A stretch of DNA of 41,035 bases from a bacterium. GTDB taxonomy: Bacteria; Patescibacteriota; Minisyncoccia; UBA6257; JACOXY01. The first letter of the stretch is position 1. The number at the start of each line of letters is the position of its first letter. Shown piece by piece: positions 1 to 38,780 of the stretch. The position numbers and the translations under genes are program-made. The DNA is taken from contig JAUXUB010000016.1 in assembly GCA_030680955.1 (NCBI GenBank), positions 1-41,035 of the forward strand, read 5' to 3'. Under the pieces are notes generated by a model. That model made no database searches and was not told the DNA's origin. It was given only the letters and a program-made list of their open reading frames with translations.

Positions 1-754
1 TGTATGATTTACCAGCGCCCGCCTTTGCAAATACTACTTGATTTGCATTTTCAAGCGAGAAGCGATCAAAAATAACTAAGCTGTTGTTGTGCATGTTTAC
101 GCCATACATTACGCCCCTGTCGGACGTAAGGTCGGGTGAGACAAACGGGAAGAGCGAGGATGCGGGGCCGGAGTTGAGAGGCGTGTGTGTTTCAAGTTTG
201 TCGGTGCAAAGCGGAAGCACAGAATCAAAGCCCTCCATCTGTTTAAAGAGCGCCGGCTTTATATAGACCAACTTACTCTGAAGTATTGATTCTATCTGCG
301 CTTCAAGTTTTGCAAGCGCGTCCAGACTTTGTCCATAGAGGGTTATATACACACCAACCTTGAAAAGTTTTTCTCTCGCCTGCATCAAAGAATCGCGCAA
401 ACTTTCAATATCCTGATATGCCGTTTCAAGCAACGGGTCGCGAACCATTCCTTTTGTTGATTTTTCATCCATTTCTGATTGGACCTGCGCAACCTTCTTC
501 TGCAAGTTGCGAAGCGCGCCCGCAGTTTCCATGGGATGTATGAAAATAGAGATATCCATCATCTCGGAAAGATTGATGATGGGAGAGAACCATCCCGACG
601 CGACAAAACGCGGATACGTAAAAATAAAAACAGTTTTTACGAAATAATCACCGAGTTTCAGATAATTTGGGCTTACCTCAAGACCTGAGGGCGCGACGAT
701 ATTTGGAAGGTCGCCAGGCGAGGGTTTGTAGGTTTGTGGAATCTGTATCTTCAT
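1..754 (-). CDS. VirB4/TrbE-like type IV secretion or conjugation ATPase, N-terminal part (3' end runs off the window)
   Basis: Absent from the ORF track because no stop lies inside the window. Manual minus-strand translation from ATG 754-752 gives MKIQIPQTYKPSPGDLPNIVAPSGLEVSPNYLKLGDYFVKTVFIFTYPRFVASGWFSPIIN...SLVIFDRFSLENANQVVFAKAGAGKSY. It is open for all 251 codons and ends in a Walker A (GAGKS) at the window edge. Visibly more G+C-rich than neighbouring DNA. Confidence 0.7.
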   Translation of the reverse strand, partial: MKIQIPQTYKPSPGDLPNIVAPSGLEVSPNYLKLGDYFVKTVFIFTYPRFVASGWFSPIINLSEMMDISIFIHPMETAGALRNLQKKVAQVQSEMDEKSTKGMVRDPLLETAYQDIESLRDSLMQAREKLFKVGVYITLYGQSLDALAKLEAQIESILQSKLVYIKPALFKQMEGFDSVLPLCTDKLETHTPLNSGPASSLFPFVSPDLTSDRGVMYGVNMHNNSLVIFDRFSLENANQVVFAKAGAGKSY

Positions 755-873
755 CCCGTTAGAGATAGGACGCAGACGCGGTAAGCATCTTGCATACTAT
801 ATTGTTATTTAATAATTCCGACTTTTTTATGTAAATCATATATTTTGTTATGCGTCCGCGATCTCTAACGGGA
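754..873. mobile_element. MITE-like element, CCCGTTAGA-TIR family, copy 1a
   Basis: TIRs are TCCCGTTAGAGATAGGACGCAGACGCG and GCGTCCGCGATCTCTAACGGGA, with an AT-rich core. Direct TTCA lies at 750-753 and 874-877. The first base is the A of the virB4-like ATG. Confidence 0.8.
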
Positions 874-877
874 TTCA

Positions 878-1100
878 TCCCGTTAGAGATAGTTCCCGTT
901 AGAAATTTTACCCACCGACACAATAGGTAAATAAATATACTTAACTTTTTTTAATATCTTAAACATATTTTTATATTTTCAAATTTCTAACGGGATAGAT
1001 CGTGTATGTCACTAACACGATATCTTTATATTTATTAATTATAATTTTTGTAATACTTAACCCGTTAAAAAATCCACAGCGACCGCGATCTCTAACGGGA
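878..1100. mobile_element. MITE-like element, same family, copy 1b, in tandem with 1a and carrying a nested element
   Basis: Starts TCCCGTTAGAGATAG and ends CGCGATCTCTAACGGGA. TTCA lies at 874-877 and 1101-1104. Confidence 0.75.
895..994. mobile_element. 100-bp inner element (short CCCGTTAGAAATTT TIRs) nested in copy 1b
   Basis: Ends are CCCGTTAGAAATTTTACCCACCGACA and CAAATTTCTAACGGG, with ATAG on both sides. It is homologous to 38572-38671. Confidence 0.65.
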
Positions 1101-1190
1101 TTCATGATAATAATTTAATTCATTAATATTTTTCGACTATGTGGTTATTATAACACCATATATAAAATTGTTCCTATAGCGACTTATTGA

Positions 1191-1344
1191 CACCATCCTC
1201 AATTAACCCCTTCCTATAAGACTTTTGTCATTGCGAGGGCGAAGCCCGCGGCAATCCAAGAAATAATGAGATAAATCTGGATTGCTTCGTCGTTCCTCCT
1301 CGCAAAGACGAGATTAAAAGAGTAATGGTTAATTGGGGATGGTA
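1191..1344 (+). mobile_element. 154-bp multi-hairpin MITE, copy 1 (orientation A)
   Basis: CACCATCCTCAATTAACC...GTCATTGCGAGGGCGAAGCCCGCGGCAATCC...CTGGATTGCTTCGTCGTTCCTCCTCGCAAAGACGAG...GGTTAATTGGGGATGGTA. About 90 percent or more identical by eye to the three other copies. Confidence 0.85.
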
Positions 1345-1352
1345 TGATTAGC

Positions 1353-1764: not shown

Positions 1765-1810
1765 GTTCTTCCCAGTTTATAACATATATTTTATCGTTTA
1801 GCAAATATAA

Positions 1811-1964
1811 TACCATCCCCAATTAACCACTACTCTTTTAACCTCGTCTTTGCGAGGAGGAACGACGAAGCAATCCAGATTTATCCCGTTAATTTCTGGA
1901 TTGCCGCGGGCTTCGCCCTCGCAATGACAGAAGTCTTATAGGAAGTGGTTAATTGAGGATGGTA
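1811..1964 (-). mobile_element. 154-bp multi-hairpin MITE, copy 2 (orientation B)
   Basis: Reverse complement of the copy 1/3 consensus: TACCATCCCCAATTAACC...GGTTAATTGAGGATGGTA. TA is present at both ends. Confidence 0.85.
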
Positions 1965-4216: not shown

Positions 4217-4370
4217 TACCATCCTCAATTAACCACTTCCTATAAGATTTTTGTCATTGCGAGGGCGAAGCCCGCGGCAATCTAGAAAAAAACGGGATAA
4301 ATCTGGATTGCTTCGTCGTTCCTCCTCGCAAAGACGAAGTTAAAAGAATAGTGGTTAATTGGGGATGGTA
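4217..4370 (+). mobile_element. 154-bp multi-hairpin MITE, copy 3 (orientation A)
   Basis: It begins immediately after the valS TGA and has TA at both ends. Confidence 0.85.
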
Positions 4371-4374
4371 TAAT
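4366..4374 (+). promoter_or_regulatory. TGGTATAAT at the MITE copy 3 right junction, facing the prsW-like gene
   Basis: Same junction sequence as at 1960 and 12023. It lies about 210 nt upstream of ATG 4585. Confidence 0.35.
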
Positions 4375-11800: not shown

Positions 11801-11873
11801 TGGTTCGATGGAGCTACTTCGACAAGCTCAGTATAAATCACCACAGGTGGGCTTTTTTGTTTTTTTAATATAA

Positions 11874-12027
11874 TACCATCCCCAATTAACCACTACTCTT
11901 TTAATCTCGTCTTTGCGAGGAGGAACGACGAAGCAATCCAGATTTATCCCATTATTTCCTGGATTGCCGCGGGCTTCGCCCTCGCAATGACAAAAGTCTT
12001 ATAGGAAGTGGTTAATTGAGGATGGTA
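11874..12027 (-). mobile_element. 154-bp multi-hairpin MITE, copy 4 (orientation B)
   Basis: Near-identical to copy 2, with TA at both ends. It lies between rpmB and tRNA-Pro. Confidence 0.85.
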
Positions 12028-34100: not shown

Positions 34101-34511
34101 TTATACTTTGGGAGTTTTATTATCCAGGTTTTGAACTGTAATAACAATTTCTCTTTCTCTTGGCCCTGCCATTTCAACCAAAACAACTCTTTGCCATGCT
34201 CCCAAATAAAGCTTGCTATCTTTTATTGGAACAACAAGTGAAGACCCAATTAGCGCAGTAATAATATGGTCTGGAGTGTGTTCTGGATTATGAGGATGAC
34301 GATATGCAAGCTTTGGAACTATTTCCTTAAAAGCATCCATCATATCCTGGTCTGTGCCTGGGTCAAGATCTGCGGTGGTAATTGCCGCGGTAGTGTGAAG
34401 CGAAAATACGGAAACTAATCCTTCATCTATTCCCTTTACCTCTAAATCTACAATATTTGTAATATCAATTACTTCTTTATCTTTTTTTGTTGAAATTTTA
34501 ATTGTCTTCAT
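34101..34511 (-). CDS. yjbQ: YjbQ/UPF0047 family protein (secondary thiamine-phosphate synthase-like)
   Basis: GLVSVFSLHTTAAITTADLDPGTDQDM...HPHNPEHTPDHI...LGAWQRVVLVE is typical of YjbQ. The start is moved to ATG 34511, because the 9 extra codons in the track lie in the repeat. Confidence 0.8.
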   Translation of the reverse strand: MKTIKISTKKDKEVIDITNIVDLEVKGIDEGLVSVFSLHTTAAITTADLDPGTDQDMMDAFKEIVPKLAYRHPHNPEHTPDHIITALIGSSLVVPIKDSKLYLGAWQRVVLVEMAGPREREIVITVQNLDNKTPKV

Positions 34512-34628
34512 CCCGTTAGAAATAGGACGCGGACGCAAAAAGCGTTATGCATACTATTTAGTTAATTATAAATATTAATTATTCTATGCTTTACATACTC
34601 TATAACTCGTCCGCTATTTCTAACGGGA
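34511..34628. mobile_element. MITE-like element, CCCGTTAGA-TIR family, simple copy
   Basis: TCCCGTTAGAAATAGGACGCGGACGC ... GTCCGCTATTTCTAACGGGA. TTCA lies at 34507-34510 and 34629-34632. Confidence 0.8.
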
Positions 34629-37467: not shown

Positions 37468-38553
37468 TTATACAATTATCCTCTCAATAAGTGGATTTAT
37501 TCTTGTCAAAAACTCATAGTAAGATGTTCTTGCTTTAAAGCTTGCGTCTATTATATCAATTTCAACTTTATCCATTATTTTGCAGGCAATATCGGTTACG
37601 TCCACCATAACTACATCCATAGTTACTCTCCCTAATATCTTTGCTCTCTCATTATTAATTATAACATCGCCAACGCCAGAGAGGGCCCAAGGAAGACCAT
37701 GCCAATAACCAATTGGTAAAATTCCAATTTTGGTTTTTCGATTTAATCTTTCGGTTAAATCATAACTCACATAACTTCCCTTAGGCGCTTCTTTAATTTC
37801 ACTTATGATAGTTTTCCAGCGTAAAACTGGTTTAAGTTTTATTTGTGGAAATTGTATTTTTATTTCTTTTGAAGGAGCGTGCCCATAAAGCCCCATTCCA
37901 ATACGAACCATATCAAAATGATATTTCGGATTAAGTATAGTAGCGGACGATGCCGCGGCATGCTTAATAAGTTTTGTAAAACCTTTTTTTGCAAAAAGTG
38001 CTATAGCTTTCTGAAATTTTTGGAACTGCATTTCGGTATAAGTTGGATAATTAATATCTTTTGCGGAAGAGAAATGCGTATAAATACCTTCCACGCATGT
38101 GACATGTAACATGTTACGTGTTACTAGTTTTATCACTTGTGGTATTTCATTAATAAAGAAGCCCTGTCGATTCATCCCTGTATCTATTTTAATATGAATT
38201 TTTGGTTTATTTTTTGACTTTATCCAATCTTTTAATGCATTAATGTTTGATATTGTAATGGCACAATTATTTTTGATGACGACATCATAATTTGAAGACA
38301 GAGTCATTCCCAAAACTAAAATTGGTTTTTTTATATTATGCTTACGCAACGTTTCTGCTTCAAAGACAGAGTCTACACAAAAATAATCCACACCACTACT
38401 TACTATTACAGCATAATCATATAAACCATGACCATAGGCGTTACTTTTAACAACCGAGGCAAGTTTAACCTTAGGCCCAATGAGACCTCTAAAAACGCCA
38501 ATATTATGGATTGCAGCTTTTTGATTTATTTCAATCCATGTCTTTAATTTCAT
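37468..38553 (-). CDS. alr: Alanine racemase
   Basis: MKLKTWIEINQKAAIHNI...VVKSNAYGHG (PLP lysine motif)...YGHAPS. The start is moved to ATG 38553, because the 54 extra codons in the track are read-through of the repeat. Confidence 0.85.
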   Translation of the reverse strand: MKLKTWIEINQKAAIHNIGVFRGLIGPKVKLASVVKSNAYGHGLYDYAVIVSSGVDYFCVDSVFEAETLRKHNIKKPILVLGMTLSSNYDVVIKNNCAITISNINALKDWIKSKNKPKIHIKIDTGMNRQGFFINEIPQVIKLVTRNMLHVTCVEGIYTHFSSAKDINYPTYTEMQFQKFQKAIALFAKKGFTKLIKHAAASSATILNPKYHFDMVRIGMGLYGHAPSKEIKIQFPQIKLKPVLRWKTIISEIKEAPKGSYVSYDLTERLNRKTKIGILPIGYWHGLPWALSGVGDVIINNERAKILGRVTMDVVMVDVTDIACKIMDKVEIDIIDASFKARTSYYEFLTRINPLIERIIV

Positions 38554-38780
38554 CCCGTTAGAAATAGGACGCGTTAGAAATTTTACCAACCGACAGATTT
38601 GGTAAATATAATGTTTTATTGATTTGAAATATAATTTCCATAAAATATTAGTTTTTAAATTTCTAAACGGGATAGGACGCGGACATAAAACCATATTCGC
38701 TGACCCGATGACCAAGACAGGGGCAATAATATTTGGGTCATCAGGTCAGGTGGATTACGCGTCCGCTATTTCTAACGGGA
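38553..38780. mobile_element. MITE-like element, CCCGTTAGA-TIR family, composite copy
   Basis: TCCCGTTAGAAATAGGACGC ... GCGTCCGCTATTTCTAACGGGA. TTCA lies at 38549-38552 and 38781-38784. Confidence 0.8.
38572..38671. mobile_element. 100-bp inner element nested in the composite copy
   Basis: CGTTAGAAATTTTACCAACCGACA ... AAATTTCTAAACGGG, with ATAGGACGC on both sides. Homolog of 895-994. Confidence 0.6.

Follow-up and report, generated by a model that had tools for sequence, protein, structure and literature searches.

Short inverted-repeat elements piled on a virB4-like start codon: a start-codon-inserting family in the candidate phyla radiation and its GIY-YIG nuclease-coding relatives

Directly in front of a virB4-like gene in the Patescibacteriota contig JAUXUB010000016.1 (41,035 nucleotides, analysed over its full length and called the window below), short repeat elements are piled onto the start codon at positions 750-1105; what are these elements, what leads them to exactly this point, and what moves them? 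The window is chromosomal, with 35.6% GC, tRNAs and aminoacyl-tRNA synthetases. The pile probably consists of three non-autonomous copies, resembling miniature inverted-repeat transposable elements (MITEs), of a family of tiny elements with terminal inverted repeats (TIRs) that occurs throughout the candidate phyla radiation (CPR) and inserts at start codons. Full-length members of this family encode a GIY-YIG nuclease between the same ends.

The virB4-like open reading frame (ORF) runs off the window; its product begins MKIQIPQTYK and matches the Pfam family TraC_F_IV, and full-length orthologs match P-loop_TraG, AAA_10, DUF87 and TraC. Its ATG occupies 754..752 of the minus strand (CAT at 752-754), and the A of this codon, T754 on the forward strand, is at the same time the terminal base of the first element, E1; the original prediction had made this assignment, and the translation and the Pfam matches of the orthologs confirm it. 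E1 (754-873) is followed head to tail by E2 (878-1100, 223 nt), TCCCGTTAGAGATAG starting both and GCGATCTCTAACGGGA ending both. The boundaries proposed for the tandem, and the TTCA copies at 750-753, 874-877 and 1101-1104, hold to the base. E1 has perfect TIRs of 13 nt, or 14 nt if the flanking A/T is counted, and is predicted to fold into a long hairpin (-41.7 kcal/mol, z = -7.0); the ORF from its gene-distal ATG is open for 39 codons and stops at a TAA within the gene-proximal repeat. At the far end of the pile, the original ATGAA of the virB4-like gene (ATG at 1105..1103) is still joined to the native upstream region.

E2 is itself composite. It had been predicted to contain a 100-bp inner element at 895-994, bracketed by ATAG on both sides; the nesting is borne out, but termini consistent with the family (T...A) extend the element to 894-995, and the flanks are TAGT and TAGA, which match at three of four positions, rather than two copies of ATAG. 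The inner element lies in the proximal repeat of E2 at an offset of 16 nt, carries the inverted repeat TCCCGTTAGAAATTT/AAATTTCTAACGGGA, folds at -30.2 kcal/mol (z = -6.1) and is 78% identical to 38569-38672, which is of the same subfamily. Subtracting one 4-mer together with the inner element leaves 117 nt for the outer part of E2 and 120 nt for that of E4, a second composite in the window; both are canonical lengths of the family, in support of the nesting. Outer E2 is of the 'GATCG' subfamily, as are elements in loci L108 and L138.

The pile is not the only occurrence in the window, where the terminal 13-mer is found 11 times (1.9 expected; at most 5 in 100 shuffles). Two further outer elements, E3 and E4, sit on the start codons of a YjbQ/UPF0047 gene and an alanine racemase gene (Table 1), and E4 repeats the architecture of E2, with a nested inner element at 38569-38672 between exact TAGG/TAGG flanks. 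All four outer elements are flanked by TTCA/TTCA; E1 to E4 and the inner elements have perfect repeats of 13-15 nt, measure 102-228 nt and are all predicted to fold as long hairpins (z = -5.5 to -7.0). None holds a GIY-YIG coding frame, the longest frames from the distal ATG being 14-44 codons.

Beyond the window, the terminal 15-mer was scanned in one genome per species, which gave 120 loci, mostly in Patescibacteria/CPR. Among these loci are approximately 90 elements with paired termini, 62-280 nt in length. Matches of the genome scan outside the CPR have no paired terminus, and the 61 matches in viral contigs are all single; both were treated as chance and serve as a negative control. An exact 4-bp duplication flanks 77 elements, with 17 different 4-mers (TGAA 47, TGGA 11, TGCG 5, TGAG 5, and others) around a constant ATG: 71 of the 77 are in the register A/TGNN, that is, ATGNN-element-TGNN, where the slash marks the point of insertion. 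One element (L082, 3008-3124) settles the length of the duplication, as its distal target copy is GTGGA and its proximal one ATGGA, a GTG start having become an ATG. A 5-bp duplication (ATGNN) is ruled out by these flanks; the duplication is thus 4 bp, and the terminal A belongs to the element.

This ATG is in nearly all cases a start codon. An ORF of at least 60 codons begins at the rebuilt ATG in 67 of the 71 elements, versus 23% of control ATGs; the in-frame open stretch upstream of the target has a median of 6 codons, and many target sites lie within a few bases of the stop codon of the upstream gene or in an ATGA overlap. The genes behind the elements are unrelated (VirB4, YjbQ, Alr, RuvX, ATP synthase, and others). 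The same rules are obeyed by six of six elements in an independent set of 65 loci, picked via the VirB4 protein and not via the element. A first start-codon classifier had returned 18 "coding" sites, which on inspection proved to be adjacent or overlapping genes, not internal ATGs. As judged from these flanks, the selected site is the start codon in register A/TGNN and not TTCA as such: the strong site selection claimed in the original prediction stands, with the difference that the 4-mer varies. In a minority of elements (L097, L101, L106, L114, L128, L141), the flanks are TAA, TTA, CTTA or TTAG and not TGNN, which might reflect insertion at a stop codon or next to one; several of these elements are coding copies with an ATG of their own (design B, below).

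Start codons could also appear as the target if the enzyme needed only ATGRA and selection then cleared insertions from everywhere but start codons, which regain their ATG through the terminal A. The target is in fact conserved only in ATG(A/G)A and nowhere outside it, and in these gene-dense genomes most unoccupied ATGRA sites, 2,006 of 2,381, are coding. The remaining unoccupied sites, however, comprise 264 non-start intergenic ones versus 111 start codons, yet occupied sites that can be classified are 35 start versus 1 intergenic, where 30% start would be expected if only coding sequence were avoided (p = 8e-18; the classification of intergenic sites is crude). Moreover, an insertion at a start codon cuts the gene off from its upstream signals and should thus do more harm than a neutral intergenic one. 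We therefore consider this explanation unlikely, and retain the start codon itself as the target.

That the elements are mobile follows from their distribution in orthologous loci and from their stacking. In VirB4 orthologs of 40-78% identity, the upstream region is mostly ordinary and runs straight into the ATG, that is, the site is empty; it is filled by a single element of about 120 nt in L191, L200 and L202, and carries a decayed element in L193 and L197. L202 and L199 form a clean pair of a filled and an empty site. For the window itself, exact-protein look-ups of four of its genes gave no match, and with it no related strain with or without the insertions. Tandem pairs with a single common 4-mer occur in five independent assemblies (L065, L110, L124, L205, L097), and L169 has a nested copy whose offset within the gene-proximal repeat is again 16 nt. 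In orientation relative to the host gene the family is biased approximately 9:1: with a search pattern able to match either end, the ATAG(G) end is only gene-proximal in 53 elements and only distal in 7 (p = 8e-10), and the family profile scores higher in gene sense than in antisense (53.9 vs 22.9 bits for E1; 48 vs 25 for E3). Excision footprints of the form ATGN/ATGNA are absent from all 618 start-like sites, versus 1-6 at control offsets; there is thus no evidence for imprecise cut-and-paste.

What moves the elements is suggested by their longest relatives. Elements of 277-280 bp agree with the short ones in ends, target, duplication and orientation, and their sole ORF encodes a 94-aa GIY-YIG nuclease of the SLX1/UPF0213 type; more widely, the only ORF found between these repeats is a GIY-YIG protein of 84-95 aa, and its frame is intact in 12 of 12 copies of 260-280 nt. 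The match to Pfam PF01541 has E = 1e-13 to 1e-17 and 51.6-64.4 bits, with a cut-off of 22.6. Y14, Y25, G27, R35, H39 and E71 are invariant in the alignment and N85 nearly so, columns which we take to be the GIY-YIG catalytic signature. An AlphaFold2 model (pLDDT 86.7) has 1ZG2 (UPF0213) and Slx1 as its top Foldseek matches, at E = 3.6e-4 for UPF0213 versus 0.67 for I-TevI; UvrC, like I-TevI, is distant. Searched with a profile, the PDB sequences yield 1ZG2 at E = 4.7e-10. NCBIfam has no specific family for this nuclease. A GIY-YIG ORF of 109 aa in L066 (2217-2543), on a contig that also carries three short elements, is more distantly related, matching the family profile at E = 2e-10. Another long element, L086 (4677-4938, 262 nt), combines family termini with a different interior, whose translation (...HPELDSGS...QIPGQARDD...) resembles repeat-derived sequence known from numerous bacteria; this may be a further nested repeat.

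The repeats and the nuclease ORF are integrated in one of two ways. In design A (L065, L103, L144, L160, L153), it starts at the distal duplicated ATG, which is the original ATG of the host gene; the distal repeat encodes the N-terminal x-PVRD and the proximal repeat the C-terminal SLTG, and translation stops at the TGA within an ATGA, in overlap with the rebuilt host ATG. In design B (L142, L141, L089, L102, L124), the ORF has its own ATG and ends at a TAA that lies in the proximal repeat and precedes the host ATG by 4 nt. Depending on the frame, the right end, TCTAACGGGATGAA, can thus lead into a fusion with the host protein, an overlapping TGA, or a TAA. A database search returns 3,320 matching protein clusters of about 95 aa, named only generically ("GIY-YIG nuclease family protein", "putative endonuclease" or similar). 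Among the best 120 of them, 90 begin M-x-PVR, with x = N, S or T, as duplications of TGAA, TGAG and TGAC predict, 107 end in LTG, and a few end in LTGW..., as a TGG duplication would give.

The 4-nt ATGA overlap between nuclease and host gene is also seen in independent gene calls. At the locus of protein P0001 (L255-L262), where two host genes overlap stop to start in an ATGA, the element occupies this overlap, and the calls place 4-nt overlaps at both resulting junctions, upstream gene to nuclease and nuclease to downstream gene. Read from these overlaps, the coupling architecture of the operon is duplicated here, not broken.

Short and full-length elements are linked end for end, with 13-25 nt in common at the distal and 15-28 nt at the proximal end (14 + 17 nt in E1), and the two forms occur on the same contigs in L068 and L124. 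A derivation of E1 and E3 from the nuclease gene by internal deletion was considered and rejected, as only the ends are in common; with unrelated interiors, the link to the nuclease rests on the common ends, target, duplication and orientation. From these we infer that short and full-length copies alike are moved by the GIY-YIG nuclease.

The flanks show directly how an element enters, between the A and the TG of ATGNN, with duplication of TGNN. Its terminal A rebuilds the host ATG beside the gene, and the original ATG stays with the native upstream signals at the far end. Both ends of the element are thus still targets, and tandem stacking with one common 4-mer is explained by this; a look-alike A/TAGR site in the proximal repeat receives the nested copies. 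The original prediction had the second copy integrating into the duplication made by the first, and repeated insertion into a regenerated target indeed agrees with the ATGAA that each insertion restores at its two ends and with the recurrence of tandem and nested copies elsewhere, although either order of insertion would do. Translation of the host gene would presumably be kept by termination-reinitiation, or by ribosomes melting the hairpin. As to the enzymology, we can only speculate that the nuclease would make cuts staggered by 4 nt at A^TGNN, in the target as well as on either side of a copy, and that the resulting cohesive ends, compatible and non-palindromic, would be joined by host ligase; such a model would account for the duplication, the fixed orientation and the lack of excision footprints. 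Alternatively, the SLX1-like enzyme might recognise a cruciform formed by the repeats.

Several points weigh against mobilisation by the nuclease. GIY-YIG enzymes hydrolyse DNA, strand transfer not being known for them, and those that are characterised leave short 3' overhangs or nicks, not 4-nt staggers. The 94-aa protein has no obvious DNA-binding domain with which to read the context of a start codon, and how a DNA enzyme would distinguish a start ATG from other occurrences of ATGRA is unexplained. There is no GIY-YIG gene in the 41-kb window, the interiors of E1 and E3 have no homology to the nuclease coding region, and the window copies, mutually only 62-74% identical, are old. A recent jump of coding copies is not seen either, the identical proteins P0059, P0021 and P0001 each being found in one genomic context.

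Some of these points would be met by a conventional DDE-type transposase, so far unseen, that acts in trans on the TCCCGTTAGA repeats with 4-bp staggered cuts, the GIY-YIG ORF then being a passenger or addiction-type cargo. TIRs with a duplication of fixed length are a hallmark of DDE transposition, and GIY-YIG enzymes are not known to integrate DNA; the missing nuclease gene in the window would also be natural. In about 1.2 Mb of fetched CPR loci, however, no larger element is bounded by these repeats, and pairs of termini 0.4-3 kb apart all turn out to be separate short elements flanking host genes. This includes the one candidate for a larger autonomous element, of 2.4 kb (L167, 3919-6287), which resolved into two short elements around a host gene. 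An ORF that is built into the repeats from end to end, and kept intact in each of the 12 long copies and across over 3,300 protein clusters, would be an odd passenger, and an orientation bias of 9:1 would be unusual for DDE elements with symmetric repeats. A hidden transposase thus seems distinctly unlikely, and mobilisation by the nuclease remains the reading we prefer.

The stable hairpins raise the further possibility that the elements are domesticated and maintained by the host as regulators of translation or RNA processing at the 5' ends of genes, the pile being a regulatory array. Besides the stability of the predicted folds in the window, the fixed orientation relative to the gene would fit this, as would the reading frames: in 20 of 55 short elements, E1 among them, the frame that begins at the distal ATG continues without a stop as far as the proximal repeat or ATG, versus 8.0 +/- 2.4 with shuffled interiors, and one subfamily has a peptide-like motif. 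Against it stand the presence/absence polymorphism in orthologs, the variable 4-mers of the duplications, the nested, tandem and decayed copies (the last in L193 and L197) and the unrelated host genes, and in addition there is no Rfam match at the gathering threshold, where the window has three tRNAs and no family on the elements, and no outward promoter or terminator around the pile, consensus matches being not above the shuffled expectation. We regard this as very unlikely, and the elements as mobile rather than host-maintained. Reading in frame into the host gene occurs in only 3 of 69 elements. That the arrangement at 754-1100 is an artefact of repeat assembly is extremely improbable, for although metagenome assemblies can collapse or chimerise repeats and the arrangement is read here from the assembly alone, an alignment of E1 with the outer part of E2 gives only about 69% identity and the two are of different subfamilies, which excludes a spurious duplication by the assembler, the junctions are base-exact and obey the 4-mer rule of the family (TTCA bounding E1, E2 and E3 alike), and the same tandem and nested arrangements are found in independent assemblies.

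The subfamily with the peptide-like motif, 'GGACGC', includes E1, E3 and E4. Its frame of 38-39 codons from the distal ATG is open in L077, L104, L113, L146, L170, L090 and L105, which have the motif ...N-R-I-G-F-G-R...ASASYF* in common; E1 has the open frame without the motif. Either a conserved micro-peptide or simply conservation of the DNA could account for the motif.

Table 1. Coordinates of the pile on the virB4-like start codon and of the other repeat elements in the window.
Feature	Position	Strand	Basis
VirB4/TraC/TraG-type P-loop ATPase gene, 5' part, 251 codons	1..754	-	translation, Pfam
Gene-proximal 4-mer copy (TTCA; TGAA in gene sense)	750..753	-	with T754, forms the working ATGAA
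E1, non-autonomous element, 120 nt, gene-sense orientation	754..873	-	TIRs, fold, profile
Single 4-mer (TTCA; TGAA in gene sense) common to E1 and E2	874..877	-	
E2 outer, gene-proximal end: TCCCGTTAGAGA and one TAGT copy of the nested-insertion 4-mer	878..893	-	
Nested inner element within E2, 102 nt	894..995	.	perfect 15-nt inverted repeat
E2 outer, remainder, TAGA through distal terminus	996..1100	-	
Distal 4-mer copy (1101-1104, TTCA) and T1105	1101..1105	-	
E3, 118 nt, TTCA/TTCA flanks, on the YjbQ/UPF0047 ATG (gene 34101-34511)	34511..34628	-	
E4, 228-nt composite, TTCA/TTCA flanks, on the alanine racemase ATG (gene 37468-38553)	38553..38780	-	
Second MITE-like family, copy 1	~1190-1345	+	
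Second MITE-like family, copy 2	~1808-1963	-	
Second MITE-like family, copy 3	~4217-4372	+	
Second MITE-like family, copy 4	~11872-12027	-	

The longest ORFs for YjbQ and alanine racemase (34101-34538 and 37468-38715, both minus) reach into E3 and E4 via TTG starts. The true starts are the ATGs at 34511 and 38553, and automatic gene callers probably over-extend these ORFs into the elements; many CPR gene starts are probably mis-called in this way, with ORFs running into elements. The window also contains a second, unrelated MITE-like family of four copies, about 152-156 nt each, with inverted repeats TACCATCCTCAATTAACC...GGTTAATTGGGGATGGTA, a conserved core CATTGCGAGGGCGAAGCCCGCGGCAATCC and mostly TA flanks; its first copy lies approximately 85 nt upstream of the pile.

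Taken together, these observations might describe an unrecognised class of prokaryotic transposable elements, for and against which we see about equal weight. Its autonomous form, of about 280 bp, would encode as its sole protein an SLX1-like nuclease without a start or stop codon of its own; it would target start sites, use the promoter, ribosome-binding site and ATG of the host gene, hand the ribosomes back at an ATGA, and move by cutting and host ligation or by cruciform resolution, not by strand transfer. A GIY-YIG enzyme, a size as small as 280 bp or a borrowed host start codon is not known from any insertion sequence (IS) family, and to our knowledge such an autonomous form would be smaller than any known insertion sequence. 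A full-text literature search, which does not cover subscription papers, returned no bacterial GIY-YIG element with inverted repeats and target duplication, and no MITEs at CPR start codons. Insertions in CPR rRNA genes that carry GIY-YIG proteins have been described as neither group I nor group II introns and as not homing-like (PMC11270868); they may belong to the same element family.

If the nuclease is the mobilising enzyme, it would represent a new enzymatic class of prokaryotic transposons and set a new lower size limit for an autonomous mobile element. This would be a DNA element whose insertion site is set by a translational landmark, which raises the question how a process at the DNA level finds start codons, and thousands of CPR genes annotated only as "GIY-YIG nuclease family protein" would have to be seen as mobile elements. 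An enzyme of 94 aa whose target is short and defined, and whose cut geometry is likewise defined, could also serve as a tool. For their hosts, the elements put strong hairpins and small upstream ORFs in front of CPR housekeeping genes, whose expression could be affected.

Among known systems, the short elements most resemble bacterial MITEs with a parent IS, such as the Correia elements of Neisseria or the IS630/Tc1-type elements with a TA target: these likewise measure about 100-230 nt, have TIRs and a duplication of fixed length, occur in many copies, form hairpin transcripts and have their ends in common with a longer coding relative. The family has all the corresponding features, TIRs around a short non-coding unit, a fixed 4-bp duplication, polymorphism in orthologs and a coding relative with the same ends. 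It differs in that this relative encodes a 94-aa GIY-YIG nuclease and not a DDE transposase, and in the start-codon target A/TGNN, the orientation of about 9:1 and the frames that end at, or fuse with, the host ATG. It is not a DDE insertion sequence, as there is no DDE ORF between the repeats and no larger element in the fetched loci. REP/RAYT systems (REPtrons) and the palindromic elements of the IS200/IS605 type are similar in having abundant short hairpin repeats and a small nuclease gene between the same repeats. RAYT and TnpA, however, are HUH/Y1 enzymes, and REP and IS200/IS605 elements have neither matched terminal repeats nor variable target duplications, whereas the elements described here have matching terminal repeats, exact duplications of varying 4-mers and a GIY-YIG protein; they thus fall outside both groups. 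Rickettsia palindromic elements (RPEs) also are palindromic repeats that coexist with host coding capacity; they insert in frame inside genes and are translated within the host protein, whereas the present elements insert at codon 1, have lengths that are not multiples of three and are mostly unfused, which separates them from RPEs.

The nuclease, in turn, recalls the GIY-YIG homing endonucleases (I-TevI, the T4 Seg proteins), which are also selfish, have a GIY-YIG nuclease as their sole gene and depend on cleavage for mobility, as would be the case here. Homing enzymes have a separate DNA-binding domain, recognise a single long site that lies in a single conserved gene, and rely on homologous repair for their spread, with neither inverted repeats nor duplications. 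The present nuclease is a bare catalytic domain, its target has about 5 informative bases and lies in hundreds of unrelated genes, and the element has inverted repeats and 4-bp duplications, so that it cannot be classed with homing endonuclease genes. Its closest relatives in sequence and fold are SLX1 and bacterial UPF0213/YhbQ (1ZG2, 1YWL, and Slx1 entries); the PF01541 match, the conserved positions and the predicted fold all point to the SLX1/UPF0213 branch of the GIY-YIG superfamily. These relatives differ in being host repair factors or uncharacterised single-copy genes, without bounding repeats or duplications. Slx1, according to the titles of its PDB entries, cuts branched DNA, an activity that would be apt for recognising the inverted repeats when folded into a cruciform or hairpin.

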